The position numbers and the translations under genes are program-made. From a virus (Duplodnaviria; Heunggongvirae; Uroviricota; Caudoviricetes), in the IMG/VR virus record IMGVR_UViG_3300033070_001565: a stretch of 21,800 nucleotides of DNA; one strand, given 5' to 3'. Position 1 is the stretch's first letter. Each line of letters opens with the position of its first letter. Shown here in pieces: positions 4,000 through 17,546 of this stretch. The notes below the pieces were generated by a model, which was given only the letters and a program-made list of their open reading frames with translations, searched no databases and was not told where the DNA came from.

Positions 4000-4216
4000 A
4001 GTTAGAGTGTATCTTGAACAAATTTTTGGGTCCGGGGCTTGGAACATTCTTTCTGGTTCGATTCCACCAGATGAGGCAAAAAAAGTTGAGAAATCTACTG
4101 AGGACTTCGTTAGAAACTTTTGTATCCCATTCGAATCTGCAACAAAAAAGATAACAAATAATCCTGAATTGGTAGCTCAGCTGGCAAAAAAGTTGTCAGA
4201 AACAAAATTAGATTAA
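3989..4216 (+). CDS. small hypothetical protein (75 aa), translationally coupled between two structural genes
   Basis: The ATG overlaps the upstream gene end by 11 nt. Its TAA overlaps the next ATG (TAATG at 4214-4218). The sequence is charged and helical. I recognise no motif. Confidence 0.55.
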   Translation: MDNEVRVYLEQIFGSGAWNILSGSIPPDEAKKVEKSTEDFVRNFCIPFESATKKITNNPELVAQLAKKLSETKLD

Positions 4217-6654
4217 TGGCAACTCTGACAAATGATCCAGCGGTAAAACCTGCTCGCAGAGCCACGCTGGGAACTCTTCTAAAGGTCGGACCTACTGCTA
4301 TTGCACGTGGCGCTGCAGAGCTATCGTCATTTGATTCTGGATACAACGTAACTTCAGACGGTGCGAAACTTAAATCAGTACTTCCAGGATTCACAGAGCT
4401 GGCTCTAAAAAGAGTCGAGGCACGTGAACTTGAGGCTGGAAATATTCTTGAATCTCTCCTGTCGTCGCCGGATACTGGCGTTACAGAGATTTCGATCACA
4501 GATTCATGGGGAAATATCAACTCAGATTTGCAGCCGTATGATGGTCCTCTCGTTCCAGGAGGGATGCTTGTACTCGCAACCACTCTTACGCTGGCAGTTG
4601 GAACTTCTCTTACACTACTTTCAAACCTTGCAGGAATTGCAACTGGACGACAGGTTGAACGTACCGGGCCGAACGGACGAGGCTACAAGGGAAAAAGCTA
4701 TAAATTTGCAGATGGTAATGGAGGACTATTTTCAACAGATAGCATCAAATCGTACATCACGGACGCACTTGGTATTCGTCCGACAACTCGCGATTATTTC
4801 GAATGCGTGAAAGCAGGTTTTGCAACTGTCGTTGGAGCAGATATATCTGGAGGTGGTCTTCTACAACAGCTCACGCAATCTTTCAAAAAATTGGCAGAGT
4901 CTCCTGGATATTACGTTGTTCTGTTTCGTACTGTCACTCGTGATGCTGTTAGACTTGCTGACGTTGTAAAATCAATGGGGTCATCGCCTCTTCAAATCGT
5001 TGATGGCGTCGCAGACGTGATAAGATTTATTAGAGGATCGAAGATCATCGCAATGATGAATGTTTTTGCAATGATCGGCGATCTCGCGCTTGCTGCAAAA
5101 GATGCAAGGGAGCGTATTGGAAGTCTAGACAACGAAGAGTATCCAATCGATGCTCCAAAAGCAGAGTTTATAAGAGCATATGCTGGAAATTCTGGTAAGA
5201 AGCTCGCATGGGCCGGCGATCGTGCAAGATCACATCTTTTGCTTCCTGAGAGAATTCTTGCAGCGCATCAAACATTCGCAAGGGATCGATCATACATGGC
5301 TGCAACGTCTCTCAAACTACAGAGAATGTATAATCCTGCAATTGATCACGACTCTCTAACACTCACAGATCAAGATATCAGCAACCGTGGCAGAATCGCG
5401 GATGATTTGAGAATTGAAATTGAAAAGCAACTCGATTCTCAATACGTTCCATTTTACTTTCATGATGTTAGAACAAACGAAATAATCTCGTTTCATGCAT
5501 TTTTGACATCGCTCACTGACGATTATTCTCCATCGTGGGATGGTACAGATCCGTATGGAAGAATCGATCAAGTAAAAATTTACAAAAGCACTGGTAGAAA
5601 AATATCTGTCTCGTTCTATGTTGTCGCAACGAACGAAGAAGATATGGATGAGATGTATCTGAAGATTAACAAACTTGTCACGATGGTGTACCCTCAGTGG
5701 TCTCGCGGAGATATTTTTGCAACTTCGGATGGCAACAATCGATTCACTCAACCCTTTACTCAGACTCCAACTGCGTCTCCGCTTATCAGAATGAGACTGG
5801 GAGATTTGATTCAGTCGAACTATTCAAAATTCGCGCTAGCGAGATTGTTTGGTGCAGGAGAAATAGGCGCACTCAAAATCAATGGAAATGAACTCACTCA
5901 ATCTCAGGTTGACGAAGTTTCAAAAGACATTCAAAGAGATATCGTTTCTCAATCTGAGCGTTTGCAATCATCTGGTGGCACAAACAGAATCGTATTTCAA
6001 ATAAGACCATCGTACGGGGGTGTGCCTATCGAATCAATGAGATCTGGAGGGATAAAACTGTCAATTCCTCTGCCGATTCCATCTGCTGGAGGAGGAATTG
6101 ACACGATATCATTTCCCGCTCACGAGCTCGAGGCTTTGAAAGTTAAGGTCATATCTGTGAGCTCAGATGATATGGCTGAAATTCAGTTTCAGATCAGAGA
6201 TTCATATTCAGGAAAGATTCCAACTCTTGAAGACAAGATTAATACGATTGCATCGAAAACGTATGTTGTGCCGATTCACTATCTTCAAGAGATATCAGCA
6301 TCTGATGGCACGCTTAATCCATCATCGAGTCCATATGATACGTCTGTGATCGAATTTTTCTCTGAAGAGAAGAACACGATTGTGAGATCTTTTAAATCGT
6401 CTGGTGGTAGAGGAATCGCTTGTACAATAGACTCGCTGAACCTTGACTGGTGGGATGGTAATAAAATCGGATGGGAGACGTATTCAATTGGAAAATGCGC
6501 TCCAAAGATGTGTCTTGTAAAAATAGCTATAACGCCGATCCACGATATTGCACCGGGAATCGATCACCGCGGATTCAATAGAGCTCCAGTGTATCCTGTT
6601 GGTTACTTTGGTCACGATTCAATCAAATCAGGAGAATTAGATGGCATTCAGTAG
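4216..6654 (+). CDS. virion structural protein (tail/baseplate-associated), function unknown
   Basis: This 812-aa ORF is start-coupled to the upstream stop and overlaps the next gene by 14 nt. The internal segment YVPFYFHDVRTNEIISFHAFLTSLTDDYSPSWDG..GRIDQVKIYKSTGRKISVSFYVVATNEEDMDEMYLKINKLVTMVYP (about nt 5443-5700) loosely resembles the VPFY...GR...P pattern of Mu gp43 (DNA-circulation N-terminal) and tube-fold baseplate proteins. That resemblance is weak and unverified. Confidence 0.75.
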   Translation: MATLTNDPAVKPARRATLGTLLKVGPTAIARGAAELSSFDSGYNVTSDGAKLKSVLPGFTELALKRVEARELEAGNILESLLSSPDTGVTEISITDSWGNINSDLQPYDGPLVPGGMLVLATTLTLAVGTSLTLLSNLAGIATGRQVERTGPNGRGYKGKSYKFADGNGGLFSTDSIKSYITDALGIRPTTRDYFECVKAGFATVVGADISGGGLLQQLTQSFKKLAESPGYYVVLFRTVTRDAVRLADVVKSMGSSPLQIVDGVADVIRFIRGSKIIAMMNVFAMIGDLALAAKDARERIGSLDNEEYPIDAPKAEFIRAYAGNSGKKLAWAGDRARSHLLLPERILAAHQTFARDRSYMAATSLKLQRMYNPAIDHDSLTLTDQDISNRGRIADDLRIEIEKQLDSQYVPFYFHDVRTNEIISFHAFLTSLTDDYSPSWDGTDPYGRIDQVKIYKSTGRKISVSFYVVATNEEDMDEMYLKINKLVTMVYPQWSRGDIFATSDGNNRFTQPFTQTPTASPLIRMRLGDLIQSNYSKFALARLFGAGEIGALKINGNELTQSQVDEVSKDIQRDIVSQSERLQSSGGTNRIVFQIRPSYGGVPIESMRSGGIKLSIPLPIPSAGGGIDTISFPAHELEALKVKVISVSSDDMAEIQFQIRDSYSGKIPTLEDKINTIASKTYVVPIHYLQEISASDGTLNPSSSPYDTSVIEFFSEEKNTIVRSFKSSGGRGIACTIDSLNLDWWDGNKIGWETYSIGKCAPKMCLVKIAITPIHDIAPGIDHRGFNRAPVYPVGYFGHDSIKSGELDGIQ

Positions 6655-6934
6655 ATACGCTAGATCAGCCAGATTGGGCCAGGGATCTTATCTCGGCACA
6701 TCGGCCGCTCAGATAACGATCAGGAGAGCAGTAGAGCAGAGCGCGGTCGATTACAGACAGTTTGTCTCGAGAGAGGGAGACCGTCTTGAGACGCTTGCAA
6801 ATCAGTTCTATGGATCAGGTGATCTCTGGTGGGTCATAGCAGCTGCCAGTGGCATTGGCTGGGGGCTACAGATGCCTCCAGGAACACTCTTGAATATCCC
6901 TGATATAGGTCAGGTGGCTCAACTTGTCGGGTGA
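6641..6934 (+). CDS. LysM-like tail protein X family protein
   Basis: SREGDRLETLANQFYGSGDLWWVIAAASGIGWGLQMPPGTLLNIPD fits the GDTLDxIAxxxYG....AN......PxGTxLxIPD pattern of P2 gpX / LysM-like baseplate proteins. It has one of the few good Shine-Dalgarno sites in the window (AGGAG at 6630-6634, 6 nt before the ATG). Confidence 0.7.
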   Translation: MAFSRYARSARLGQGSYLGTSAAQITIRRAVEQSAVDYRQFVSREGDRLETLANQFYGSGDLWWVIAAASGIGWGLQMPPGTLLNIPDIGQVAQLVG

Positions 6935-6940
6935 TCTAAT

Positions 6941-9799
6941 ATGAACAGCGTATCGCCAGTATCGAAACTCTCTGAGATCTACAGGTACATCTCTCCGAAA
7001 GATTTTGCAGGAAATCTCGCAAACTATGATGTAACTCCATCTGGTCTCGTACCGAACAAATCTGAAGAGGTTACCGGAGACATTGTACCATTCCTTCAGG
7101 GACTTGTCGTAGAAACAAGCAACAATGGTGCTGCTTCAAATGCTGATATTATCGATTCAGTCACGGCATATCTTGCCGGCGCCTCTACTGATGTTGTCAA
7201 GGAGTTTACAAAAAGATTCCTATGCATATCTGACACGCCGGTACCATTCAACTCTGACATTCAAAAACTAAAGAATTTCAAACTTTCAACTCTTATGAAC
7301 GGAAGTGGAGAGAGAGTTGAGTGCTCTACGTACATGATCGGAACTCAGAAAGTAAACATCAATCTGAGAAACACGAATGATATCATGACATTCTCTCGTG
7401 CAATACCAACGCACGAGATGTCGAGATGTGTTCCACATCTAAGGGTACGATTTCTTTATCCATCCGACTCAAGCGGTAGAAATCCAGATGGAAAGCTGCT
7501 CTCACCAGGAATATTGAAATTTCTGAGAGGCGGGGTCAGCATCTCAGACAGATCTGCCGATCTTGCAATGACAGATCCCACGCTAAGACTCAGCGCTGAC
7601 TCTGAACTCGGTCTGACGGGCGCAGCTGCAATACGAGGGTCTTCGAACGGGGGCGGAATGGACATGTTCCTCATGCCGCAGACACTACAAAATTTCGAAG
7701 AGACTGGGCTCGTCGATGGCAGGTTCAACTCTGTAATTGATCCCACACGCCCGTTCATGTCTCTTGAGGAGCTCTCTGTGAAGTGTGTGACTCAGCAAGC
7801 AGGTATGGGTCAGTACAAGACTGCCGAGCTGTCTCTCGTTCTCCACGATAGATCACGTCTACCAGATATTGCTCATCTCATCAAGCCAGATGCTTACGGG
7901 AAGACAATGCTCGATATTGAGTACGGTTGGTCTCATCCCGACGGGATCGGAAGCGATAACATCTACGGTGAGTTTATCAACAGGATCAAATCGAGAGAGA
8001 TATACATGATCAGGAATGCTGGATACGGCATTACGAACACTGGCGAGATGAAGATAACGCTTCATCTCGCAATGAAAGGCGCGACTGAGATGCTGAGATC
8101 TCGCATAAGCCAGTTCGATTACGAGAAAGATCTGAGAGTTCTAACAAATACAATTAGCGAACTCAGGAGAGCGCTCAATCTCAGTGTGCCTGGAGATCCG
8201 AGAGTAACTCAGATTCTCGATGCAGCTGAGCGTGGTGAGAGACCTGCAGATAGTGCAAATTTTCAAAAAGAACTCGATGGACTCCTCTCTGCTCTGAGAT
8301 CGGGATCTTACGCCAGAAAAGGTACTGATGGTGCGTCTGCATCGATCGCTGGGTCTGCTGCGCAAAAACTTGCTGACAAGCTGAAAGAGTTGTATCTCAA
8401 TCCGGATCCTGGAAATACAAAATCGAAACTTACGTTCAAAGAGAGCAGACAAAAAATTGCCGTAGAGACGATCAGAAAGAAATTCGTTCAGTGCGAGACA
8501 GGAATCGACCCATTTTTCCCAGATCCCGCAGATAAGGAAAAATACCCTGCTTTTGCATACAGCCTCGACACTTATAACAAGGGTACAAAAGACGATCCAA
8601 ACGGTCGAAATTCGATCGTATCTTTTGGAAAGTTGTTCTGCACTTTCGCTCTTGGTTCCATAAGAGACACACTGAAGGAGGAGATTGATGAAATACAAGT
8701 TTTCTTTTACCCATTCAGTACCGGCGCCGGCCGTGCTAGTGGGTCTCCAATCGGAATGTTTCCGATTGAAACTTCTGTTATTGACAGAATCATGCAAGAC
8801 AGGGCTCAGAAAACGATGAACGCAGACATGAGCGTTTACGATTTTTTGAATCTCGTGAATGACAAGATTTTTTCCGATCCAAGAACATTTGCATATGGAC
8901 TCTCAGACCTCTACATGCCGAGAACTGCAGATGAAAAAGAAGCACAGCTGAATACAAAAGTTGTCAAGGATTATCCTGCGCTCTCTCGTGCTCTTGATGA
9001 GAGATTGAATCAGTTTGGTGGTACATTCAAGGCTCCTGTTATCAAGATCATTCCTGAGACATTCCCGAAGCGACTGGGTCAGTATGCAGTTGATCCTAAC
9101 AGATTGATTCTACGACTTCATGTTTTCGATGTGCAAGCTGATGCTAACGATGCTGCGATGTCAGTCCTCAAGTCGCTGTCTCTTTCACCGACTGCATTTG
9201 TACCTGGAGCATCATCTCAAGATGATAGCGTAAAGCAGTTCATCGAAAATTTCAAGACCGCAACTGCAAATCTTGTAGGTTTGGGATTCAAAGATATCTC
9301 AATTAATCAGTCATCTGTAGGAAAACAGAATTTTCTTTCCGTCGACGGAAATCCTGAGCTCATCAAGGCTGCAATTACGAAGCTACTGCCTACGATATCG
9401 ATCGGAGGAAACGCATCGATCGTTACAAACATACAGCTCAGTCCGCAGCAAAATGCTCTCATATCATCTGCAAATATGAGAGCAAACGGAGGAGGGCCCG
9501 GGTTCAGGCCCAACGGGTCAGCCGCAGGTGGCTTGCCACTCAGCGTCATACCTGGAGAGATGAGTCTGTCAACGCTGGGATGTACATGGGCGACGATTGG
9601 TCAGAGAATATTTGTCGACTTGAAAACTGGAACGCAGCTCGATAATGCATACGTGTGTACAGGGATCGATCACAAAATTGGTCCTGGAAAATTCGAAACG
9701 AACTGGAAGTTCGCGTGGTACGATGCGTACCCAGCGTATACTTCATTCGTAAGATCAATGCAACAAGTAAACAGATTGCTTGAAAAAGCTTCCGCGTGA
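6941..9799 (+). CDS. large virion structural protein, possible baseplate hub/tail-tip protein (function unverified)
   Basis: This 952-aa uninterrupted ORF lies directly after the gpX-like gene. In P2/Mu-type tails a gpD/hub-type protein sits in that position. I could not confirm any enzymatic motif by eye. Confidence 0.7.
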   Translation: MNSVSPVSKLSEIYRYISPKDFAGNLANYDVTPSGLVPNKSEEVTGDIVPFLQGLVVETSNNGAASNADIIDSVTAYLAGASTDVVKEFTKRFLCISDTPVPFNSDIQKLKNFKLSTLMNGSGERVECSTYMIGTQKVNINLRNTNDIMTFSRAIPTHEMSRCVPHLRVRFLYPSDSSGRNPDGKLLSPGILKFLRGGVSISDRSADLAMTDPTLRLSADSELGLTGAAAIRGSSNGGGMDMFLMPQTLQNFEETGLVDGRFNSVIDPTRPFMSLEELSVKCVTQQAGMGQYKTAELSLVLHDRSRLPDIAHLIKPDAYGKTMLDIEYGWSHPDGIGSDNIYGEFINRIKSREIYMIRNAGYGITNTGEMKITLHLAMKGATEMLRSRISQFDYEKDLRVLTNTISELRRALNLSVPGDPRVTQILDAAERGERPADSANFQKELDGLLSALRSGSYARKGTDGASASIAGSAAQKLADKLKELYLNPDPGNTKSKLTFKESRQKIAVETIRKKFVQCETGIDPFFPDPADKEKYPAFAYSLDTYNKGTKDDPNGRNSIVSFGKLFCTFALGSIRDTLKEEIDEIQVFFYPFSTGAGRASGSPIGMFPIETSVIDRIMQDRAQKTMNADMSVYDFLNLVNDKIFSDPRTFAYGLSDLYMPRTADEKEAQLNTKVVKDYPALSRALDERLNQFGGTFKAPVIKIIPETFPKRLGQYAVDPNRLILRLHVFDVQADANDAAMSVLKSLSLSPTAFVPGASSQDDSVKQFIENFKTATANLVGLGFKDISINQSSVGKQNFLSVDGNPELIKAAITKLLPTISIGGNASIVTNIQLSPQQNALISSANMRANGGGPGFRPNGSAAGGLPLSVIPGEMSLSTLGCTWATIGQRIFVDLKTGTQLDNAYVCTGIDHKIGPGKFETNWKFAWYDAYPAYTSFVRSMQQVNRLLEKASA

Positions 9800-9809
9800 T
9801 AAATTTCTG

Positions 9810-9843
9810 TAAATCTTAAATTCTTAATTGATCTTAAGATTTA
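9810..9843. repeat. AT-only inverted repeat in the 45-nt spacer between the structural and replication modules
   Basis: TAAATCTTAA (9810-9819) and TTAAGATTTA (9834-9843) are perfect reverse complements separated by 14 nt. The repeat ends 1 nt before the GTG start at 9845. There are no G:C pairs and no downstream T-run, so it is a poor intrinsic terminator. It could instead be a protein-binding palindrome or a structure at the translation initiation region. Confidence 0.4.
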
Positions 9844-9844
9844 A

Positions 9845-10948
9845 GTGAATCAATTCTTCATTGACTCAGATCTAACAAGCAAGATATCAAATATCAAAAT
9901 TCAAATTGATACTGAGCATGGGAAATTTAAGAGAGTACAAAATCCATCTGGTTATGCATACACACGTACGGATGCTCATGTACGTGCAAGCTTGCAAGCC
10001 CTGGCATGGTCTCATGGGGTACATGTCGATGTGACGTCACCTGTACCTGAGACTGTACTTGCCGGTCTTGGAGTATTTGATGTTTGTCCTGCACACGTGA
10101 TCAAACCATGGCTAGATTCAGTTCTGAAGCAAGTGAGAGAATATTCTGAGCTATCAAATGAGTATTGCGAAAATGTGTGGAAGCGACACATGCATTTTGC
10201 AAGCAAATTTGCTCAGCTACCCGGTCGACCATCTCCGGTTTACGATTTTATCTCATCAAAGACCGGTCGACCATCTGTGATATCCGGGCACAATTACACG
10301 AATGAGACGTGGTCATCTCGAGTACATGCAATTTCGAACAATGGATGCCTGTATTACGTCGATATGAGCGAGTTCGAGGCAAGAGTACTCGGCGCAAGAG
10401 TTGGAATCGATTTTGGGGGATCTGATGCGTATATGACTCTAGCTGAGATGGTTGGTATACCTGGACAGAGAGATGATGCCAAGCTGACAGTCCTGGCATC
10501 AGTTTTCGGAGCGGGAAAGAATTTCACTGAGTCGAAGAACCTGTCACTCAGTACTCTCGGTAGCGTAAGGAGCATCTTCAAAATCGATGAGCTAGCTCAC
10601 TCGTCCGGACCAATCGTGACTCCACACGGCAGAAAAATTGCAAAACCAGAAGCACGGCTCGTACCATCTTGGTACACTCAAGCAACGGCAGTAGACATTG
10701 CGTGGCAGAGATTTGAAAACACAGCAGAATTGTTTCCATCAAAATTCGATACGATCGCAATCGTGCATGATGCATGCATTATCGATGCTCCTGTCGGAGC
10801 AGAAAAGAGACTCACGAAGTATTTTGCTCAGACTCTCATCGATCCTGTTACTGGCGTTAGTTTCCCAGTCAAAATTAAAAAGTTGAGTGATGTAAAGAAT
10901 GTCAAGCGAGAAGTACAATCTGAACAAGATGGTACAATCTCTCAGTGA
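9845..10948 (+). CDS. minimal family-A (Pol I-like) DNA polymerase domain protein, no exonuclease domain
   Basis: GTG start; the next in-frame Met is at residue 115. TGRPSVISGHNYTN corresponds to TGRLSSxxPNLQNIP. Motif A is YYVDMSEFEARVLGA versus DYSQIELRxxAH (D173 at 10361-10363, E178 conserved). Motif B is RDDAKLTVLASVFGAG versus RRxAKxxNFGxxYG (K213 at 10481). GRKI..(N)..TQATAVDIAWQRF corresponds to GRRR...QGTAADIxKxAM. Motif C is IAIVHDACIID versus QVHDE (H308/D309 at 10766-10771). Confidence 0.75.
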   Translation: MNQFFIDSDLTSKISNIKIQIDTEHGKFKRVQNPSGYAYTRTDAHVRASLQALAWSHGVHVDVTSPVPETVLAGLGVFDVCPAHVIKPWLDSVLKQVREYSELSNEYCENVWKRHMHFASKFAQLPGRPSPVYDFISSKTGRPSVISGHNYTNETWSSRVHAISNNGCLYYVDMSEFEARVLGARVGIDFGGSDAYMTLAEMVGIPGQRDDAKLTVLASVFGAGKNFTESKNLSLSTLGSVRSIFKIDELAHSSGPIVTPHGRKIAKPEARLVPSWYTQATAVDIAWQRFENTAELFPSKFDTIAIVHDACIIDAPVGAEKRLTKYFAQTLIDPVTGVSFPVKIKKLSDVKNVKREVQSEQDGTISQ

Positions 10949-11585
10949 GAGTCAAATACTCAGCAATTATGCTGCATACAGCAAGCTGCTGATCGCAACT
11001 GCTCTTCCGAATCAAAAAGCTGGTGTCGAGTCTCTTCTCTCTCATCTTGAAAATCGATTGGCACTGTGTCCTGGATCGTCGAAGATTGCATATCATAATG
11101 CATTTCCCGGGGGTCTTGTCGATCACTCTCTACGAGTTGCGAAGCTTGCAAAGCAATTTGTTACTGGTATGCAGATGACTGGAATTCCTATCGCTCGTCT
11201 CATCTTTGCGTGTCTCTTGCACGATCTTGGGAAGGTCGGCGATGAACGAGATGAGTACTACATTCCTCAGACAAATGACTGGCTCCGCGGAAAGGGAGAA
11301 CCCTATCAGATTAATCCTGCAATTCGGTACATGGCAACACAGCAAAGAAGCGTGTACCTTTGTCAGTATTACGGTATTCAGCTCTCTCATGAGCAGTATC
11401 TTGCGATTCTCCTGAACGATGGTCAGTATTCGAAGGATAATGCTGCGTACGCAATGAAAGAGCCTGAACTTGCAACCGTGCTCCACACTGTGGATCTTCT
11501 TGCAACGAAGATTGAAAAGGGAGAATTTATGAAGTCACAAGATTCTGAATTTGACTCGACAGAGTTAGATATTATATGCAAGTGA
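10899..11585 (+). CDS. HD-domain metal-dependent phosphohydrolase
   Basis: YHNAFPGGLVDHSLRVAKLA ... LIFACLLHDLGKVGD ... LHTVDLLA gives the H...HD...D signature of the HD superfamily and looks like a YhaM-type HD domain. The listed ATG overlaps the polymerase gene by 50 nt. An alternative ATG at 10929 would overlap by 20 nt. Confidence 0.8.
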   Translation: MSSEKYNLNKMVQSLSESQILSNYAAYSKLLIATALPNQKAGVESLLSHLENRLALCPGSSKIAYHNAFPGGLVDHSLRVAKLAKQFVTGMQMTGIPIARLIFACLLHDLGKVGDERDEYYIPQTNDWLRGKGEPYQINPAIRYMATQQRSVYLCQYYGIQLSHEQYLAILLNDGQYSKDNAAYAMKEPELATVLHTVDLLATKIEKGEFMKSQDSEFDSTELDIICK

Positions 11586-11749
11586 AGCTTGAGGACCTCA
11601 TCAGAGAGATCATTATACAAGAGTTTGTAGCTCTTGCAGGTGGTGCGGTATCAGGTTTCATTGCTCCAGTAGAACAAACACAAAGCAAAAAATCGTCAGT
11701 AAAACCAAAAAAGAAAAAAGAAGATAAAAGCAATGGCAATCGACATTAA
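11576..11749 (+). CDS. possible small protein (57 aa), hydrophobic N-half with a Lys-rich tail
   Basis: This ORF is below the track's length cut-off. My translation is MQVKLEDLIREIIIQEFVALAGGAVSGFIAPVEQTQSKKSSVKPKKKKEDKSNGNRH. It fills the otherwise non-coding 147-nt gap, overlapping the HD gene end by 10 nt and the SSB start by 17 nt. Alternatively the A-rich stretch is simply the SSB leader. Confidence 0.3.
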   Translation: MQVKLEDLIREIIIQEFVALAGGAVSGFIAPVEQTQSKKSSVKPKKKKEDKSNGNRH

Positions 11750-12569
11750 CGCTCTCCGCGCTCGTCTGGCTGGTATCGAAAACGCTAACAAGAGGAAGTC
11801 GAACATCAAGTTCTTCCGTCCTGAGGTTGGTGAGTACACTCTCCGTGTTATTCCCTGGCTCGATACTCCCGATAACGATCCTTTCAAGAATCTCAAGCTT
11901 CACTACCTCGTGAAGCCACGCCTTGTCTCGCCGGCGTCTTTTGGTAAGACGGATCTCATCATCGAGCTAGCCAAGGAAATCAAAGCAGATCGTTCTGACC
12001 CCGATGGCTGGAAGAAAGCCCGTAAGCTCGAGCCGGCTGATACTTGGTATGCTGCTGTTCTCGATCGTGCAAAGGAGGCCGATGGTCTACATCTCTGGTC
12101 CTTTAACATCTACATCTGGAAACGTCTCGTGTCGTTCTTCCTCGAAGAGGACACACAGGAGTGGCTTGATCCCAAGAATGGCTTCGATCTGAAGCTGAAG
12201 GTCGCTCCTGGCAAGAAGATGTACAACGGTAAGCCTGTGAACGAGACAACGATCGATCTCGCCAGGAAGCCCTCTCCCGCCCTGAAGGATCCTGCCGCGC
12301 TGAAGAAACTTGTTGAGTCAATGACTCAGTTCACGGCTGACTTCTCTGCAGACAATCAGCCTGCAACAGACGCAGAGCTGCAGCATGCTCTCGATACGTT
12401 TTTGAGTGAGCAAGATGCAGCTGCTGGTCTGCCTGCGAAGGACAAGACTGATGAGGGTACGAGCTCCCGGGGTCCTGCAAAAGCTGCTCCTTCGGGTGGT
12501 TCGAATACGTCTTCTGCAGTTGATGCACTAGACAGCGCCGTCGATGATCTCTTGAACTTATTGGCTTGA
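11733..12569 (+). CDS. T4 gp32-like single-stranded DNA-binding protein
   Basis: The matches to T4 gp32 are collinear. LRVIPW corresponds to IRFLP. TWYAAVLD corresponds to SYWANILV. HLWSFNIYIWKRL corresponds to FKYRFGKKIWDKI. GFDLKLKV..GKKMYNG corresponds to GANFVLKVKQVSGFSNY. The low-complexity Ser/Ala linker and the acidic C-terminus SAVDDLLNLLA correspond to DLDDLLNDL. Codon choice is strongly C-ending and AAG-rich, as expected for a highly expressed gene. Confidence 0.75.
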   Translation: MAIDINALRARLAGIENANKRKSNIKFFRPEVGEYTLRVIPWLDTPDNDPFKNLKLHYLVKPRLVSPASFGKTDLIIELAKEIKADRSDPDGWKKARKLEPADTWYAAVLDRAKEADGLHLWSFNIYIWKRLVSFFLEEDTQEWLDPKNGFDLKLKVAPGKKMYNGKPVNETTIDLARKPSPALKDPAALKKLVESMTQFTADFSADNQPATDAELQHALDTFLSEQDAAAGLPAKDKTDEGTSSRGPAKAAPSGGSNTSSAVDALDSAVDDLLNLLA

Positions 12570-12586: not shown

Positions 12587-12587
12587 T

Positions 12588-13799
12588 ATGGCAGCCAAGA
12601 AAAAAGAATTCATCCCGGTTCTTAACGAAGCGGTCGACGGTATTGATGCCGCGTCGACCGCTGAGTTCGTTAAGCAGATTAACCGTGAGATGGGAGACCG
12701 TGTAGCATTCAATCTCGCGGAGGGAGAGGCACCAACAATCATCAAGCGTTGGATTCCGACCGGTTCCACTCTCATTGATTACATGATCGCGAATCGTAAA
12801 GGCGGAGGTCTACCAGAGGGAAGAATCATCGAACTCTCGGGCATGCCCTCAACTGGCAAGTCTCACATTGCGTACGAGATTGCAAAGAACGTGCAGAAAA
12901 TGGGCGGTCTCGTCGTGTACATCGACACTGAGAATGCGACTCAGATCGATAAACTCCATGAGATGGGTCTCGATGTCAGGAACCGTTTTATCTACTGCGA
13001 TACGCACTGCACGGAGGAGGTCTTCGAACTCATTGAGAAGACGATCACGAAAGCAAAGCAAGTCATTGGGAAGAAGAACGTTCCATTTCTTGTCATTTGG
13101 GACTCTGTCGCTTCGACATCACCAAAAGCAGAACTAGAGGGAAATTACGATAAGGACACAATCGGTCTCCAGGCGAGGGTTATCAGTAAATGCATGAGGA
13201 AAATTACGGGAGTACTCGGTGAGAATAATGTAACCCTTCTGTGTCTCAACCAACTCAGGACGAAGATTGGTGAGATGTTCGGAGATCCCATGTCATCTCC
13301 TGGAGGAAACGCTATTCCATTCCACTCAAGTGTGAGATTGAGACTTTCTTCTGGTCAGCCAGTCAAGAACAAGAAGGGCGAAATCATCGGGATCAAGGTG
13401 ATTGTCACTCTCAAGAAGAACAAGGTTGCATATCCTCACCGCAAGTGCGAATTCGAGATTCATTTCGGACGCGGAATCTATGAATCAGAAGCACTATTCG
13501 ATGTGCTCAGAGAGTGGTGCATTGAGCACACAGGAGCAAAGATCGGAGATGCGTACGTTTCGGTCAGCGGTGATGGTGCATGGAAAGAGCTCATTGTCGC
13601 AACAAAAGATGGAGAAGTACTTGTTGAAAAGAAGTTCTATAAACACGAGTTCAGCGAGGTAATGTCTGATCCGAAATACCTCCCCTACGTATCAGTACTC
13701 ATTGATGCTGCGCTTGTAATAAAGCCAGACCTAGGTACACAAACAAATAATGGAAGCCCATCAGAAGGTGAATCAGACACCACAGCAGCCCCAAACTAA
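12588..13799 (+). CDS. recA: RecA-family recombinase
   Basis: LPEGRIIELSGMPSTGKSHIAYEIA contains the Walker A motif. VVYIDTENA and FLVIWDSVASTSPKAELEG contain the Walker B motif. GLQARVISKCMRKITGVLGENNVTLLCLNQLRTKIGEMFGDPMSSPGGNAIPFHSSVRLRL is nearly collinear with the bacterial RecA core (GLQARLMSQALRKLTG...[32 protein letters not shown]). Confidence 0.9.
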   Translation: MAAKKKEFIPVLNEAVDGIDAASTAEFVKQINREMGDRVAFNLAEGEAPTIIKRWIPTGSTLIDYMIANRKGGGLPEGRIIELSGMPSTGKSHIAYEIAKNVQKMGGLVVYIDTENATQIDKLHEMGLDVRNRFIYCDTHCTEEVFELIEKTITKAKQVIGKKNVPFLVIWDSVASTSPKAELEGNYDKDTIGLQARVISKCMRKITGVLGENNVTLLCLNQLRTKIGEMFGDPMSSPGGNAIPFHSSVRLRLSSGQPVKNKKGEIIGIKVIVTLKKNKVAYPHRKCEFEIHFGRGIYESEALFDVLREWCIEHTGAKIGDAYVSVSGDGAWKELIVATKDGEVLVEKKFYKHEFSEVMSDPKYLPYVSVLIDAALVIKPDLGTQTNNGSPSEGESDTTAAPN

Positions 13800-14314: not shown

Positions 14315-15268
14315 ATGTCAGAACCCTCTCCTAGGCCGATTCTTCTCGTTGACGGTCTCAATCTGTTCATAAGATGCTGGTGCGCGTATCCTGCTGTCTC
14401 AACTCATGGTGGGCAGCTGGGAGGCGTTGTCGGGTTTCTGAAAACTCTCAACAGGCTCGTGTCTGATAATTCTCCACAGAGAGTCATCATCGCATGGGAG
14501 GCTGGCGGATCTCTGCGTCGCAGAGGAATAGACCCCAATTACAAGAACCAGCGCCGACCTGAGAAGCTCAACAGATTTTATGGAGATGATATCCCTGAGA
14601 CACACGAGAATTGGCAGCACCAGCTCACAAGTCTTGTGAAGATATCAGAGTGTCTCCCGGTCACTCAGGTTTATGTCGAGGACTGTGAGGGAGATGACGT
14701 AATATCGTACTGTGCAACATCGATCAGAGGAGTCAACAAGATCATTGTCTCATCAGACAAAGATTTTTATCAGCTCCTTGACTCAGAAACAAAACAGTAC
14801 TCTCCTCACAAAAAGTGTTTCATAACTCAGGATGACGTTCTGAGAGACTTTTCGATTCATCCTTGCAACTTTGCAATCGCGAAGGCAATCTGCGGAGATC
14901 CTGGAGATAACGTTTCAGGAGTCCCACGAGTGGGATTCAAGAGTCTCGCAAAACATTTTGACATTCTTAAATCGAGCACGCCACTCATTCTTCCCGACGT
15001 TGAAACTTGGGCTGCTGCTCATAGAGATGAGTCTGCAATCATCAAGAGAGTGTGGGAAAACTGGGATATTGTCCAGAAGAATTGGAAACTTGTCTTTCTT
15101 GGAATTGGCGCTCTATCTCCACAGCAGATAAAGAGGATTGATCAATGTTTGGGAGTGGTACCACAACCAAGTCTGGTCAAGTACTTCGGACTGCTAAAAG
15201 AGATCGGAACATCTGACATTGGAGTACATTCCACGTTCCAAACGCTGAAGCAAATAGGTGATAATTGA
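14315..15268 (+). CDS. 5'-3' exonuclease / flap endonuclease (Pol I N-terminal / T5 D15 / T4 RNase H family)
   Basis: ILLVDGLNLFIR shows the PIN-like acidic site. IIVSSDKDFYQLL is also present. AKAICGDPGDNVSGVPRVGFKSLAKHF fits the H3TH pattern GDxSDNIPGVxGIGxKTA. Confidence 0.85.
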   Translation: MSEPSPRPILLVDGLNLFIRCWCAYPAVSTHGGQLGGVVGFLKTLNRLVSDNSPQRVIIAWEAGGSLRRRGIDPNYKNQRRPEKLNRFYGDDIPETHENWQHQLTSLVKISECLPVTQVYVEDCEGDDVISYCATSIRGVNKIIVSSDKDFYQLLDSETKQYSPHKKCFITQDDVLRDFSIHPCNFAIAKAICGDPGDNVSGVPRVGFKSLAKHFDILKSSTPLILPDVETWAAAHRDESAIIKRVWENWDIVQKNWKLVFLGIGALSPQQIKRIDQCLGVVPQPSLVKYFGLLKEIGTSDIGVHSTFQTLKQIGDN

Positions 15269-16029
15269 CTGAGAATTTTGGTAAGTACGGTATCGATTTC
15301 CAAGAAAAGATTATGCAAGCTCTGCTCGTTGATCGAGCATGGGCTCAGCAGATGATGGAGGTGTTCAAACCAGATTTCTTTGAGAGAAAGCATCTCGTTT
15401 ACCTTTCGAACAGATACTTCGAGTACTGGAAGCAATACAAAGTCTTTCCGACATTTGAACTTCTCGTTGTCATCATCAAAGATGAGCTGAAGTCTGGTAT
15501 TGACGCTGAATTGAGAATTCAGATTGTCGATTATCTCAAGCGCATTAAAGATAATCCCAACTCTGAAGATCTTTCCTACGTGAAGGATAAGTCTCTCGAT
15601 TTCTGTAAGCGTCAGGGATTGAAGACTGCAATGCTCGAGGCAATCGAGCTGATCGAAGATCAGCGTTACGAGCCCGTTGTCGATATCATCAAGAAGGCTG
15701 TCTCTGCGGGTACATGCGAGTCTCTGGGACACGATTTCTTCGAAGACAGAGATGCTCGCTACGTTGAAGATTACCGTGAGTGCGTTCCAACCGGCATTCC
15801 GGAACTCGATTCAAAGGGTGTTTTCAATGGTGGATTGGGCAAGGGTGAACTCGGAATTGTCATTGGTGGCACCGGCGCAGGAAAATGCACTCAGAAGAAC
15901 GCCACTGTAAACATCAGGTATACAGCGATTGATATCGATGGTACGATTTACAATCCATGGGATATCGTATCAACGAGAAGAGGAAAGATTCTTGCAAAAG
16001 ATGTCACGTCAAGAGACGAACTCATCTGA
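15265..16029 (+). CDS. T4 gp41/DnaB-type replicative helicase, N-terminal fragment ending inside Walker A, fused to an intein N-segment
   Basis: The TTG start overlaps the FEN stop (aaTTGAct), with an alternative ATG at 15313. GHDFFEDRDARYVEDY resembles T4 gp41 GHDWMDDYEARW. The helicase sequence ends GELGIVIGGTGAGK (AAA at 15883-15885). It is followed by Cys (TGC 15886-15888), then TQKNATVNIRYTAIDIDGTIYNPWDIV... and TGA at 16027-16029. Confidence 0.85.
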   Translation: MTENFGKYGIDFQEKIMQALLVDRAWAQQMMEVFKPDFFERKHLVYLSNRYFEYWKQYKVFPTFELLVVIIKDELKSGIDAELRIQIVDYLKRIKDNPNSEDLSYVKDKSLDFCKRQGLKTAMLEAIELIEDQRYEPVVDIIKKAVSAGTCESLGHDFFEDRDARYVEDYRECVPTGIPELDSKGVFNGGLGKGELGIVIGGTGAGKCTQKNATVNIRYTAIDIDGTIYNPWDIVSTRRGKILAKDVTSRDELI

Positions 16030-17546
16030 ACAGATTCCGGAGTGTCAGATCTGCGGAATGACTTCACGCAATCTGATTACTCACATTACACGTACTCACA
16101 AGATCTCATGCAGTGAGTACGCTTCACAATATCCAGGTTCAAAAATTTTTCTTGTTAGGAAAAAAGAAAAGAAGCTTTCGCAGAGGCAGCAGCATGTAAT
16201 TGAACTCAAATCGCTTGGTACGAGTCCGCTTACGTGCAGACTGTGTGGATTCGAGTCTTACATGTCACTCACCTCGCACATTACGAAAATTCATAAATTT
16301 TCGATGGCTGAGTACAGAAAAAAGTTTCCAGAAGATGTTATTCAACGAGGCTGTCCGACAACAAATGAAAAGAACAGAATCGCACAAAAAGAACGTTTGA
16401 AAAATCCTGATTTGCGTGAAAAATGGGACAAGCAAAGATTTCTTCCTCCTACCATGAAGGAATTTTGGATAAAAAAGGGTCTGTCTGAGACAGACGCGGA
16501 AATAAAAGCGCGTGAAATGCGCGATAGAATATCAAAAATTCCTGTTAGCGCTTCAACACGATCAAAACTGTCAGAAAAATCGCGTGGAATTAAAAATCCA
16601 ATGTCGATTGAATCCATTGCGGCTCGTCATCATGTTACGCCCGATGAAGCGAGCGCATTCACTCCGTGTTATCGTCGCAGTGGAAGTTTGCATCCCATGT
16701 ACGGAAAACATCATACTGAAGAAAGTCTACAGAAAATTGCAAACGCAGATCATCTAAAACGTCCAAAATGGTCGTCGAAGGGTGAAAAAGAACTAGCGAA
16801 TTTTTGCAATTCTCTAGGCGTTACGTATGAAAACGTAAAAATTGGAAGATATAACGTAGATGTTCTATTCGCTGAAAAGAAATTGATCGTTGAGTACTTT
16901 GGAGATCTATGGCATATGTCTCCTAGGCGGTTCGAAAAAGATCAGTACCATTACTTGACACGAAAAACTGCATGTCAAGTATGGGAAAGAGATCACAAAA
17001 AGATGGAGAATTTTGTATCAATAGGATACAAAATTCTCGTAATCTGGGAATCAGATTGGAAAAATGATAGAGTTTCTTGCGAAGAAAAGATTACCGATGC
17101 CTACAATCAAGCACGTTGAAATTACTCGTACGGTTAGTCTCGAAGATCTTTTTGCTGAATTGGGATGTTCTGAGAAAGATGCACCTAACACTGAAGACGG
17201 TGACACGCTCATCAAATGCGATTATCCGATTGAAGTTGAATCTTCGAACGGCTATCAATTCATCAGTGCCGTGAGATGGACAAAACATGAACCGGTAATC
17301 AAACTAATCGTGAAATCCGAGATCGATGAAAAAAGTGTATCTCTCGGTTGCTCTCCTGAGCATCGTGTCATGACAAAACGCGGGTGGAAATATGTAAAAA
17401 ATCTTTTCGAAGATGATTACGTGTACACAAAGGACGAATGGATGAGAGTTGAGTCTTTGAAGGGACTCGATGAACTGGAACGTCTCTGTGATATGCAAGT
17501 TGATATTACTCACTGCTACTACACAAACGGGATCCTATCTCACAAC
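15886..17546 (+). mobile_element. composite selfish element: P-loop mini-intein interrupted by a free-standing homing endonuclease gene
   Basis: The element begins at intein Cys1 (15886) and ends at the terminal ...GILSHN (AAC 17544-17546), followed by the +1 Ser (TCG 17547). Block B is SLGCSPEHRVMT (His at 17361-17363). Blocks F/G are DMQVDITHCYYTNGILSHN. Removing 15910-17117 (1208 nt) leaves 453 nt, a 151-codon mini-intein. Confidence 0.8.
15929..17119 (+). CDS. free-standing homing endonuclease: two C2H2-like zinc fingers, NUMOD3-like modules and a C-terminal Vsr-like (PD-(D/E)xK) nuclease
   Basis: Frame 2 is open from the TAA at 15908-15910 to the TGA at 17117-17119. Candidate starts are TTG 15929, ATG 15938 and ATG 16001. 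The fingers are CQICGMTSRNLITHITRTH (about 16043-16099) and CRLCGFESYMSLTSHITKIH (about 16235-16294). NUMOD3-like modules include SGSLHPMYGKHHTEESLQKI and SEKSRGIKNPM. The nuclease region GEKELANFCNSLGVTYENVKIGRYNVDVLFAEKKLIVEYFGDLWH...VWERDHKK...GYKILVIWESDW is collinear with Vsr/DUF559-type endonucleases. Confidence 0.8.
   Translation: MISMVRFTIHGISYQREEERFLQKMSRQETNSSEQIPECQICGMTSRNLITHITRTHKISCSEYASQYPGSKIFLVRKKEKKLSQRQQHVIELKSLGTSPLTCRLCGFESYMSLTSHITKIHKFSMAEYRKKFPEDVIQRGCPTTNEKNRIAQKERLKNPDLREKWDKQRFLPPTMKEFWIKKGLSETDAEIKAREMRDRISKIPVSASTRSKLSEKSRGIKNPMSIESIAARHHVTPDEASAFTPCYRRSGSLHPMYGKHHTEESLQKIANADHLKRPKWSSKGEKELANFCNSLGVTYENVKIGRYNVDVLFAEKKLIVEYFGDLWHMSPRRFEKDQYHYLTRKTACQVWERDHKKMENFVSIGYKILVIWESDWKNDRVSCEEKITDAYNQAR

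Follow-up and report, generated by a model that had tools for sequence, protein, structure and literature searches.

A short family-A DNA polymerase without a 3'-5' exonuclease domain heads the replication block of a lineage of large aquatic phages

A gene for a protein of 367 amino acids with the motifs of a family-A DNA polymerase (PolA) directly follows a structural gene in a stretch of tailed-phage DNA of 21,800 nucleotides (IMG/VR record IMGVR_UViG_3300033070_001565; the whole stretch is called the window below). The locus raises the question of what so short a polymerase does for the phage, and whether it is an active enzyme at all. A preliminary description, made from the sequence alone, offered three options: the catalytic half of a split polymerase, a minimal repair- or translesion-type enzyme, or an inactivated paralog. 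The analysis presented here fits best with a minimal repair-type or accessory enzyme, and speaks against both the split polymerase and the inactivated paralog. The gene, referred to as sPolA, encodes a divergent yet complete family-A polymerase core. The positions of the gene, its motifs and its neighbours are collected in Table 1.

Table 1. Features of the window around the short polymerase gene, in order of position
Feature	Position	Strand	Details
Tail/baseplate-type genes (812 aa, 97 aa, 952 aa) upstream of sPolA	4216..9799	+	97-aa protein matches baseplate PHROGs
AT-rich inverted repeat	9810..9843	.	Arms 9810-9819 TAAATCTTAA and 9834-9843 TTAAGATTTA; 10 nt, perfect, 14-nt loop
sPolA (short family-A DNA polymerase gene, divPolA1-like)	9845..10948	+	367 aa, GTG start
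sPolA, N-terminal ~130 aa	9845..10234	+	Predicted beta/alpha unit (strands 4-39), then helices 83-100 and 106-119 at the place of the thumb (AF2 secondary structure)
TGR motif (T140, G141, R142; R142 = Klenow R668)	10262..10270	+	Codons acc ggt cga; R in 154/155
Motif A YYVDMSEFEARVL (D173 = D705, catalytic; E178 = E710, steric gate; R180)	10352..10390	+	Aligned to Bst DYSQIELRVL
Motif B / O-helix RDDAKLTVLASVFGA (R209 = R754, K213 = K758, L217 = F762, F221 = Y766, G222)	10469..10513	+	Aligned to Bst RRQAKAVNFGIVYG
QATAVDI motif, residues 279-285 (Q279 = Q849)	10679..10699	+	Aligned to Bst QGSAADI; Q in 154/155
Motif C AIVHDACIID (H308 = H881; D309 = D882, catalytic; A310 for E883)	10757..10786	+	Aligned to Bst LQVHDELILE
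HD-domain phosphohydrolase gene	10899..11585	+	Pfam HD E=1.8e-6; 50-nt overlap with the 3' end of sPolA
gp32-like ssDNA-binding protein (SSB)	11733..12569	+	phrog_1192 E=3.7e-6; immuto SSB E=1.4e-29
RecA/UvsX-like recombinase	12588..13799	+	PF00154 E=2e-56
5'-3' exonuclease / flap endonuclease (FEN)	14315..15268	+	PF02739 E=1.3e-25
DnaB-type replicative helicase, in two halves owing to a split intein, a free-standing endonuclease gene lying between them	15265..18404	+	
Class II ribonucleotide reductase (RNR), last gene of the conserved block	18367..20868	+	PF02867 E=2.9e-86

As a single sequence, sPolA is too divergent to find a match in Pfam, NCBIfam or the PDB (phmmer), and 50,697 phage records searched by tblastn gave nothing useful. 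Its sole single-sequence match is PHROG 17 (E=1.4e-4). A family profile of 60 sequences, when compared with the PDB, matches Bst Pol I (E=8e-19) over profile positions 110-390 with the motifs collinear, and 52 of 60 family members match PF00476. A word-indexed search with the family profile recovered only 10 proteins, and the family was opened up only when 1.84 billion representatives were scanned exhaustively with HMMER. It comprises 214 representative clusters (50% identity), nearly all of 340-420 aa, and occurs in a broad lineage of large aquatic myovirus-like phages with contigs of up to about 280 kb. With more than 200 clusters in its family, the gene is not a lone oddity. A search of IMG/VR with the close-clade alignment recovered no other member of the clade to which sPolA itself belongs, the best match there having 31% identity.

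The AF2 model of sPolA, built on a 60-sequence alignment, has a pLDDT of 91 and a pTM of 0.88. An alignment of this depth was required, as four sequences gave a pLDDT of only 33.7. Foldseek pairs the model with KlenTaq and Bst (E~1e-11, probability 1.0, TMq about 0.48). The best 50 PDB matches are all PolA enzymes, and the structure matches in BFVD are phage PolAs. Pol nu and Pol theta are found among both the profile and the fold matches. These comparisons with known profiles and structures had been proposed in the preliminary description, and together with PF00476 they sustain its reading of a stand-alone PolA polymerase core that lacks a 3'-5' exonuclease domain; a search for exonuclease domain families in 60 family members gave 0 matches. 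In the model, palm and fingers are accompanied by an apparently much-reduced thumb and a small unit at the N-terminus. The N-terminal 130 residues contain no conserved acidic residues, and no column ahead of residue 133 is invariant in the family alignment. This part is also the most variable of the protein, with a pN of 0.165 versus 0.102 in the core. The thumb, judged by the secondary structure of the model only, appears as two short helices before the palm (residues 83-100 and 106-119), and the clade of the window is without ~27 family-profile positions in this region.

The landmarks of the polymerase domain (TGR, motifs A and B, QxTAxDI and motif C) are all located at the residues first reported for them, as confirmed codon by codon in the sequence. 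The register on Klenow proposed at the same time (K213 = K758 and so on) is upheld by the profile alignment, which pairs the family pattern R-xxx-K-xxx-l-xxx-Y-G with R-RQA-K-AVN-F-GIV-Y-G of Bst, and iHDA with VHDE, and puts L217 opposite Bst F710 (Klenow F762). Leu at the position of F762, Phe at that of Y766 and HDA in motif C are likewise borne out. Two further neighbours in the O-helix differ, with V216 in place of N761 and A218 in place of G763. The motifs lie closer together than in Klenow, with 40 versus 53 residues between A and B and 96 versus 124 between B and C.

A census of 155 family members, whose mutual identity is only about 29%, indicates which of these positions are fixed in the family. 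The D173 position is Asp in 154 and the D309 position in 153, and the equivalents of D173, D309, R209 and K213 are each present in at least 153 members. The E178 position, presumably the steric gate for the dNTP sugar, is Glu in 152 of the 155, and the equivalents of E710, R668, R754, K758 and Q849 are each kept in at least 152. Position 762 is mostly aliphatic (L 85, I 54, M 6, V 4, F 2), the residue at 766 aromatic (Y 127, F 27) and that at 883 usually Ala (A 124, E 12, S 6, G 6). In Klenow, the change of E883 to Ala lowers kcat. Because 12 members still carry HDE, the change at this position appears to be tolerated variation, and HDA in motif C together with Leu or Ile at 762 would be lineage traits compatible with activity rather than signs of decay. 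Retention of the equivalents of both catalytic aspartates, the steric-gate Glu, R668, R754, K758, Q849 and H881 suggests that sPolA is an active, dNTP-specific DNA polymerase. Conservation of the steric-gate Glu (152/155) also led to the rejection of a further idea, that of a single-subunit T7-like RNA polymerase.

Selection on the gene points in the same direction. Compared with an orthologue of 79% identity, sPolA has a dN/dS of 0.088, and the polymerase core is its most constrained region. A dN/dS of ~0.09 means that the gene is not decaying. Relatives at 79-89% identity keep both the GTG start and the N-terminus MNQFFIDSDL.

An AT palindrome had been noted beside the GTG. It is real and ends one base before the start codon. 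The inverted repeat is unique within the window, and the 71-nt intergenic stretch, folded as RNA, has a predicted energy of -13.5 kcal/mol (z = -2.25). In the 79%-identical relative, the intergenic stretch with the repeat hardly differs, despite the saturation of synonymous sites in sPolA. The repeat is probably a regulatory element.

The gene order around sPolA is well conserved. Tail/baseplate genes are followed by sPolA, the HD gene, in some cases a small ORF, the gp32-like SSB, RecA, in some cases a dUTPase, FEN, DnaB and RNR. This order is the same in 80 of 80 IMG/VR loci and in three further loci (L001, L005 and L007), and in about 100 loci sPolA is always the first gene of the replication/recombination block, directly after the tail/baseplate genes. 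The gene in front of it (6941-9799, 952 aa) had been taken to be structural, and indeed belongs to the tail/baseplate block. A homologue of the 952-aa protein occurs upstream of sPolA in those IMG/VR loci that include upstream sequence, but the protein has no tblastn match in cultured phages, and profile iteration did not link it to the 938-aa protein of Flavobacterium phage immuto.

Downstream, an HD homologue comes after sPolA in 69 of the 80 IMG/VR loci. The HD protein has only generic HD/HDIG similarity, the HDIG match being sub-threshold, and no sequence match in the PDB. The SSB of one relative matches PF08804 (gp32), and in a relative DnaB is uninterrupted (478 aa). The block in the window also has a dUTPase, between RecA and FEN, and no primase was found in the window. 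FEN is present in the block in all loci of sufficient length, and is a candidate partner of sPolA for Pol I-like processing.

No DnaE was seen within 10 kb on either side of sPolA, as it lies 12.7-20 kb away; it comes into view in loci centred on RNR. One contig (L012) represents the same population as the window, with 25 mismatches in 13,434 nt. It encodes a DnaE-type family-C polymerase at 18454-20790 (PHP, DNA_pol3_alpha and finger domains, E=4e-58), equivalent to window coordinate about 26820 onward and so outside the window, about 17 kb downstream of sPolA and about 6 kb past RNR. The contig ends inside DnaE. The second polymerase could be looked for in 25 loci, each with at least 9 kb beyond RNR. 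DnaE lies 12.7-20 kb downstream of sPolA in 15 of these, and in 10 of the 25 three queries found no polymerase within 10 kb beyond RNR. In another locus (L232) DnaE is full length at 1200 aa. In L012, DnaE is adjoined by ThyX, dUTPase_2 and two N6/N4 methyltransferases, and its neighbourhood, as far as the contig end inside DnaE, showed no chaperonin. Two cultured phages show the same doubling. Microcystis phage Mel-JY01 has a member of the sPolA family (WWT39333, hhalign 98.2%) as well as PolB and a clamp loader, the regular polymerase adjoining the clamp-loader genes, and immuto has gp1 as well as a regular PolA of 777 aa. The preliminary description had reasoned that a conventional polymerase elsewhere in the genome would make sPolA a degenerate duplicate. 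The conventional polymerase does exist, but it is a family-C DnaE and not a PolA, so sPolA is a conserved second polymerase and not a degenerate duplicate.

Phages with two polymerases of this kind have been described. The divergent PolA termed divPolA1 is carried beside a regular polymerase of family A, B or C; it keeps the catalytic residues of the palm, has a truncated thumb and an inactive or lost exonuclease, and is followed by an array of replication genes (Yutin et al. 2024). The phages concerned have genomes of 155-190 kb, with GroEL/GroES and nucleotide-metabolism or modification genes near the regular polymerase, which is exchanged among families A, B and C while divPolA1 stays; the genomic context of divPolA1 suggests a part in replication (Yutin et al. 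2024). In the literature, the class is treated only in that paper and its preprint. The likeness of sPolA is apparent in the retained catalytic residues of the palm, the N-terminal region with no exonuclease match and the company of DnaE. In immuto, the divPolA1 exemplar, the gene order on both sides of the polymerase matches the window. Upstream, the 812-aa protein of the window is homologous to gp235 of immuto (716 aa, E=5e-10) and the 97-aa protein to gp236 (101 aa, E=1e-11). Downstream, immuto has two ORFs, SSB, RecA, a 5'-3' exonuclease, DnaB and RNR, where the window has HD, SSB, RecA, dUTPase, FEN, DnaB and RNR. Motif C reads xDA in both sPolA and immuto gp1.

There are also differences. 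At 367 aa, sPolA is 74 aa shorter than immuto gp1 (441 aa) and has a much smaller N-terminal region, with TGR at residue 140 compared with about 221. An HD gene follows sPolA and none was detected in immuto, and the genome of a relative of sPolA, at 255.8 kb, is outside the 155-190 kb range. Pairwise, sPolA and immuto gp1 have no significant similarity. By hhalign, the A2 profile scores 92.9% against immuto gp1, 95.4% against the profile of the immuto clade and 96.1% against the regular PolA of immuto, and the A2 HMM gives 11.5 bits for gp1 versus 36.4 bits for the regular PolA. In this comparison, in which immuto stands for divPolA1 rather than the published CAB4155247 and QDP51333, sPolA is by sequence alone no nearer to gp1 of immuto than it is to ordinary PolA. 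Based on gene order and profile similarity, sPolA is most likely a strongly reduced divPolA1-like enzyme, and so of a previously known class. What is new is the strongly reduced family member; the divPolA1 class itself has been known since 2024.

Several other known systems resemble sPolA in part. Bacterial Pol I (Klenow, Bst, KlenTaq) has the same fold, with TGR, A, B, QxTAxD and C collinear and the steric-gate Glu kept, and the FEN-type 5'-3' exonuclease near sPolA gives the impression of a Pol I divided into separate genes. Unlike bacterial Pol I, sPolA has neither a 3'-5' exonuclease domain nor a vestigial one of normal size, its thumb appears reduced, and Klenow residues F762, Y766, E883, N761 and G763 are replaced by Leu, Phe, Ala, Val and Ala, respectively. 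A gene for the polymerase domain only is also found in T7-like cyanophages of the S-SBP1 type, where the exo gene is directly adjacent after fission by frameshift and the phage has no replicase other than this enzyme (Czernecki et al. 2023, NAR 51:4488); in about 100 loci no exo gene adjoins sPolA, which is moreover accompanied by a second polymerase. In staphylococcal SCC elements, the exonuclease-truncated PolA of CCPol-MP is encoded next to a helicase and a small partner, but the partner there is the MP beta-barrel and here an HD hydrolase. The divPolA2 of barbaviruses is a second divergent PolA, without exonuclease, beside a regular polymerase, with variable neighbourhoods, an unrelated globular N-terminal domain and RNA-polymerase-like structural matches (Yutin et al. 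2024). In contrast, the replication context of sPolA is fixed, and its dNTP steric gate is retained.

A tie to marine viral PolAs with Leu762 had been drawn in the preliminary description. The Leu itself is present, and the sPolA family resembles the Leu762 virioplankton groups in the aliphatic residue at 762 and in its origin from aquatic viral metagenomes (Schmidt et al. 2014; Nasko et al. 2018). The link to those groups does not hold, as they stand beside SF1/SF2 helicases (UvrD, RecB, SNF2) and are without RNR (Nasko et al. 2018), whereas the sPolA family adjoins DnaB (SF4) and a class II RNR and is accompanied by a second polymerase.

Taken together, these observations are best accommodated, with a probability of roughly 0.55, by a second, proofreading-less, divPolA1-like PolA that performs Pol I-like gap filling or recombination-associated synthesis. 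Such an enzyme would be without proofreading and probably of low processivity. Exonuclease-deficient PolA makes ~1e-5 to 1e-4 errors per base, which is too many for a 250-kb genome, and truncation of the thumb lowers processivity. Lacking proofreading and probably processivity, sPolA is most likely not the copier of the 250-kb genome. DnaE, or PolB or PolA in relatives, would serve as the processive replicase, and sPolA would make short patches together with the products of neighbouring genes. One option is the removal of primers and filling of gaps with the separate FEN, a 'Pol I in pieces'. The other is the extension by sPolA of recombination intermediates made by RecA and SSB.

The same gene order may be viewed differently. 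Since the short PolA is constant and the regular polymerase is swapped (DnaE here, PolB in Mel-JY01, PolA in immuto), sPolA is equally readable as the true core replicase at the fork with DnaB and SSB, with the regular polymerase as accessory and fidelity supplied by a trans factor such as the HD protein or another nuclease. Its invariant place at the head of the replication block (about 100 loci), the HD gene that overlaps its 3' end and follows it in most loci, and the role in replication seen by Yutin et al. 2024 from the divPolA1 context are in accord with this. Overall it seems rather unlikely, as no exonuclease domain was matched, the thumb appears reduced in the model and sPolA showed no motif for a clamp or processivity factor, while the regular polymerases have their full length (1200 aa for DnaE) and that of Mel-JY01 stands beside clamp-loader genes. 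The HD protein, for its part, has generic similarity only and no sign of nuclease function. A more specific form, in which sPolA and the overlapping HD protein make up an ancestral two-gene replicase core, the HD protein editing or sanitising dNTPs in trans and the full-length polymerases being accessory, must be considered quite improbable. A split PolA with its exonuclease/thumb half elsewhere in the genome, as first suggested, is more doubtful still. Although split exo and pol genes exist in T7-like cyanophages and sPolA has no exonuclease domain, in the known case exo is adjacent, and here a ~950-aa structural gene lies upstream and HD downstream in about 100 loci. The model is a confident, self-contained fold with its own N-terminal unit, and the whole family is 340-420 aa long, which together argue against a missing half. 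The only annotated stand-alone exonuclease of immuto was dropped as a trans-proofreader, being of the PD-(D/E)XK type and not DnaQ-like.

A lesion-bypass or damage-tolerance polymerase comparable to the exonuclease-inactive Pol nu and Pol theta, acting on phage DNA damaged by UV or oxidation in surface waters, would explain the compact form without exonuclease domain, the altered O-helix neighbours (L217, F221, V216 and A218), the co-occurrence with a replicase and with RecA in the same block, and the presence of both enzymes among the profile and fold matches. This seems unlikely, as the strictly conserved head position and very broad lineage suggest a housekeeping role, the steric gate and the minor-groove-sensing R668 and Q849 equivalents associated with accurate synthesis are retained, and sPolA is shorter than ordinary PolA and has no insertion loops of the Pol theta or Pol nu type. 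There is very little to recommend a primase-polymerase acting with a small neighbour in the style of CCPol-MP: the overlapping small gene, DnaB in the block and the lack of a primase in the window recall the truncated PolA, small protein and helicase of that system, but the HD hydrolase is unrelated to MP, and the idea was dropped when a DnaG primase was found in immuto. The inactivated paralog of the preliminary description, or a pseudo-enzyme kept for a structural role, might be suspected from HDA in place of HDE and from the failure of the single sequence to match PF00476. It is refuted as far as such data allow, and scarcely credible, given near-invariant D705 and D882 equivalents, other key residues kept in at least 152 of 155 sequences, members that still have HDE and a dN/dS of 0.09.

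If these interpretations are right, their meaning extends beyond one locus. Two DNA polymerases are maintained across a very widespread lineage of large aquatic phages, the sPolA family alone comprising more than 200 clusters at 50% identity and the immuto clade more than 1,400 at 90%. With 340-440 aa, the short enzymes rank with the smallest PolA polymerase domains in nature, and the small size, with naturally tolerated Ala at E883 and Leu or Ile at F762, makes them attractive for enzyme engineering. The cultured phages immuto and Mel-JY01 open the question to experiment. If the two-gene reading with the HD protein were true, it would be a new solution for accurate replication by a proofreading-less PolA, and if sPolA were the real replicase, the usual view of which polymerase matters in such genomes would be overturned. 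If sPolA is instead a Pol I-like gap filler working with a separate FEN, these phages would have rebuilt the bacterial division of labour between Pol III and Pol I from separate genes.

The gene considered here, sPolA, encodes a short family-A DNA polymerase. Reading of its codons confirmed the 367-aa frame, GTG start and motif residues initially described. The N-terminus (MNQFFIDSDL) is common to relatives at 99, 89 and 79% identity, and the GTG start is shared by the 79% relative, an orthologue on a 255,832-bp contig with gene order identical to that of the window. The intergenic stretch upstream is nearly identical in this relative, with few positions differing (pS is 0.67 in the gene). It contains the AT palindrome noted earlier, an inverted repeat that ends 1 base before the GTG, occurs once in the window and is probably a regulatory site or translational hairpin. 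As a single sequence the protein is too divergent for standard libraries, with no Pfam match even at E<=10, no NCBIfam match and nothing meaningful in the PDB; tblastn against 50,697 phage records was likewise negative. The sole library match was PHROG 17 'DNA polymerase' (E=1.4e-4, residues 169-224).

Features of the sPolA region (window coordinates unless a locus is named)
Feature	Position	Strand	Remarks
Tape-measure-like protein	55-3999		1314 aa
75-aa ORF	3989-4216
812-aa protein	4216-6654
97-aa protein	6641-6934		baseplate PHROG matches
952-aa protein	6941-9799
Intergenic stretch	9800-9844
AT-rich inverted repeat	9810-9819 / 9834-9843
sPolA	9845-10948	+	GTG start, 367 aa
T140-G141-R142	10262-10270	+	codons read in sequence
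D173	10361-10363	+	codon read in sequence
K213	10481-10483	+	codon read in sequence
H308-D309-A310	10766-10774	+	codons read in sequence
HD-domain protein	10899-11585		50-nt overlap with sPolA 3' end
gp32-like SSB	11733-12569		stop codon TGA, 12567-12569
RecA/UvsX	12588-13799
dUTPase	13750-14211		overlaps RecA by 50 nt, 13750-13799
FEN-type 5'-3' exonuclease	14315-15268
DnaB helicase, fractured	15265-18404
DnaB N part	15265-16029		ends ...GGTGAGK, then ~47-aa short N-intein starting CTQKNA
Free-standing endonuclease ORF	15929-17119		between DnaB halves; NUMOD3, ROS/MucR-type zinc fingers, Vsr/REase_MTES_1575-like nuclease domain
DnaB C part	17064-18404		starts with ~162-aa long C-intein ending ...GILSHN, then SHLLVNLGANA
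Class II RNR	18367-20868		833 aa, uninterrupted
DnaE-type family-C polymerase	L012:18454-20790		same population as window; PHP, Pol III alpha, finger; ~5 kb past window 3' end

When 1.84 billion representatives were scanned exhaustively with HMMER, 214 clusters matched at E<=1e-3, nearly all of 340-420 aa. The family alignment (60 sequences, mean identity 29%) is invariant at Y133, T140, G141, R142, G148, D173, D194, R209, K213, G222, Q279 and D309, with no invariant column before residue 133. Against the PDB, its profile matches the Bst Pol I large fragment best (E=8e-19), followed by Taq, Klenow, Pol nu and Pol theta. Profile and Bst align at motif A ('iDfsslEpRvl' and 'ADYSQIELRVL'), motif B ('RdkaKlavlsaLYGa' and 'RRQAKAVNFGIVYGM'), the Q motif ('YvQStavDv' and 'PIQGSAADI') and motif C ('viHDAlilDv' and 'QVHDELILEA'), which confirms the Klenow register first proposed from the sequence (K213 = K758, L217 = F762, F221 = Y766). 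PF00476 is matched by 52 of the 60 members and exonuclease families by none, in agreement with the reported absence of a 3'-5' exonuclease domain. AlphaFold2 gave a pLDDT of 33.7 with a 4-sequence alignment, and of 91.0 (pTM 0.88) with the 60-sequence alignment. In the latter model the palm and finger elements form a complete set, the thumb position is occupied by two short helices (83-100 and 106-119), and the N-terminus is a small beta/alpha unit with strands between residues 4 and 39. The top 50 PDB matches of this model in Foldseek are all PolA enzymes, among them KlenTaq, Bst and Pol nu (E~1e-11, TMq ~0.48, probability 1.0), and its BFVD matches are phage PolAs.

The catalytic residues are nearly invariant among 155 family sequences aligned to the profile. 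In Klenow numbering, the equivalents of D705, R668, K758 and Q849 are each kept in 154, D882 and R754 in 153, the sugar steric gate E710 in 152 and H881 in 146. The unusual residues that had been pointed out at 762, 766 and motif C recur in the family: position 762 is Leu in 85 members, Ile in 54, Met in 6, Val in 4 and Phe in 2; position 766 is Tyr in 127 and Phe in 27, including the window's clade; and position 883 is Ala in 124, Glu in 12, Ser in 6 and Gly in 6. HDA and Leu762 are thus lineage characters, with HDE persisting in a minority. Comparison of the window gene with its 79% orthologue gives a dN/dS of 0.088, with saturation at synonymous sites and the strongest constraint in the catalytic core. 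Together with the residue census, this selection rules out the inactivated paralog offered as one option in the preliminary description. An RNA polymerase is also unlikely, because the steric-gate Glu is retained.

The genomic context is well conserved. In all 80 sPolA loci from an IMG/VR scan (labelled by local phmmer/hmmsearch) the order is 952-aa homologue, sPolA, HD, SSB, RecA, FEN, DnaB and RNR, with the HD gene behind sPolA in 69; a ~195-aa ORF before SSB and a dUTPase before FEN each appear in some. The window's clade is a remote branch, with at most 31% identity to any IMG/VR member. Freshwater relatives with a polymerase identity of only 26% keep the order, with T4_baseplate genes upstream. 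Family proteins are annotated at source only as 'hypothetical protein', on contigs of up to 208 kb. Overlapping junctions in the block (sPolA/HD, RecA/dUTPase, FEN/DnaB and DnaB-C/RNR) suggest tight translational coupling across it. The HD/HDIG-type phosphohydrolase could be a functional partner of sPolA; a PDB sequence search with it gave no match, and no homologue was detected in the phages immuto or Mel-JY01.

None of the 80 loci has an exonuclease gene adjoining sPolA, which argues against the proposed split polymerase with its exonuclease half encoded elsewhere. In the split exo/pol PolA of T7-like cyanophages the exo gene is adjacent and a second polymerase is absent, unlike the arrangement here. 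The suggested link to marine virioplankton PolA holds for the shared Leu762, but those groups neighbor SF1/SF2 helicases and lack RNR, and membership is rejected on this basis. In the paper on those groups, Taq F667L is slower and more accurate. CCPol-MP, in which a small protein partners an exonuclease-truncated PolA, is only a loose analogy because immuto encodes a DnaG primase.

Other genes of the block differ between the window and its 79% relative. The fractured DnaB is arranged as described by Dassa et al. 2009 (PMC2677866), although its N-fragment is unusually short and its C-fragment unusually long by comparison. DnaB is uninterrupted in the 79% relative (478 aa, GAGK directly followed by SHFLV), whereas the class II RNR of this relative (L001:16867-20808, 1313 aa) contains an intein that includes an HNH endonuclease, so that mobile inteins occupy different replication genes in two close phages. 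In the same relative the SSB stop is the sense codon CAT, which places SSB and RecA in a single 683-aa ORF (L001:11904-13955, and L002; window equivalent 11733-13799). This ORF is present in two independent assemblies and may be a natural fusion.

sPolA fits the description of divPolA1, a divergent PolA reported from 14 phages that also encode a regular polymerase of family A, B or C; these phages have 155-190 kb genomes and comprise immuto and its relatives, uncultured freshwater phages and GOV bins. In divPolA1 the palm residues are conserved, the thumb is truncated and the exonuclease inactive, and a conserved replication-gene array lies downstream; a probable replication role was the only functional conclusion (Yutin et al. 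2024, PMC11348598). No later paper mentioning the class was found in a literature search. In Flavobacterium phage immuto_3-5A (160 kb), gene 1 encodes a 441-aa protein with the annotation 'DNA polymerase family A'. Behind it come two small ORFs, then SSB, RecA, 5'-3' exonuclease, DnaB and RNR; a 777-aa regular PolA adjoins GroES/GroEL. Upstream, the 812-aa and 97-aa proteins of the window match gp235 (716 aa, E=5e-10) and gp236 (101 aa, E=1.3e-11), and the slot before the polymerase holds a 952-aa protein in the window and a 938-aa protein in immuto; the SSBs match at E=1.4e-29. Pairwise comparison of sPolA with gp1 gave no signal. In hhalign the sPolA profile scored 92.9% against gp1, 95.4% against a 20-sequence immuto-clade profile and 96.1% against the regular PolA, and its HMM gave 11.5 bits for gp1 and 36.4 for the regular PolA. 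Judged by these scores sPolA is no closer to gp1 than to the regular enzyme, so membership in divPolA1 rests on positional orthology and architecture rather than sequence clustering. At 367 aa sPolA is also more reduced than gp1 (441 aa), and its TGR lies at residue 140 instead of ~221.

Microcystis phage Mel-JY01 (190 kb) has a family member in the same genomic position, the 408-aa 'hypothetical protein' WWT39333 (WWT39333.1, L010:397-1623; hhalign 98.2%, E=3e-14; HMM 62.7 bits), with PolB and clamp-loader genes 22 kb downstream. In WWT39333 the motifs are more strongly derived, with TSR replacing TGR and YDA replacing HDA. WWT39339 of this phage, annotated 'DNA polymerase I', occupies the FEN slot and matches FEN. 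Both cultured phages follow the same logic of a short PolA plus a conventional polymerase.

The window's own population also encodes a conventional polymerase. JGI contig Ga0212216_10000500 (25 mismatches in 13,434 nt) continues 7.4 kb beyond the window end, where RNR is followed by ThyX, dUTPase_2, a metallophosphatase, two N6/N4 methyltransferases and a DnaE gene cut by the contig end (PHP E=1.7e-28, DNA_pol3_alpha E=4e-58, finger E=9e-17), whose start lies ~17 kb downstream of that of sPolA. Among 80 IMG/VR loci re-centred on RNR, 25 had sPolA together with 9 kb or more of sequence past RNR, and DnaE was present in 15 of these, 12.7-20 kb from sPolA; the DnaE of locus L232 is a Pol III alpha of full length (1200 aa), with PHP, alpha, finger and HhH domains. 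A conventional polymerase had been anticipated as a sign that sPolA is a degenerate duplicate; the polymerase is there, but the low dN/dS does not support the duplicate. The preliminary description is partly right: the PolA core without an exonuclease domain is confirmed, the inactivated paralog is excluded and the split enzyme is not supported.

sPolA would be expected to be an active, dNTP-specific polymerase with a small thumb and no proofreading. Error rates of PolA enzymes of this kind are ~1e-5 to 1e-4 per base and their processivity is low, which would be unsuitable for copying genomes of 160-280 kb. The main rival explanation, which is less probable, would reverse the roles, with the invariant sPolA as core replicase and the swappable polymerase (DnaE, PolB or regular PolA) as accessory. 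However, the presence of full-length replicases, that of Mel-JY01 beside clamp-loader genes, favours an accessory role for sPolA in short-patch synthesis with its constantly co-located genes. This could be Pol I-like primer removal and gap filling with the separate FEN, or extension of RecA/SSB recombination intermediates. Given the 2024 paper the result is unsurprising: sPolA is an unusually reduced new example of the class described there. The class does, however, extend far beyond the 14 genomes of that paper, its active-site signature is now defined, and FEN and HD are indicated as candidate partners.
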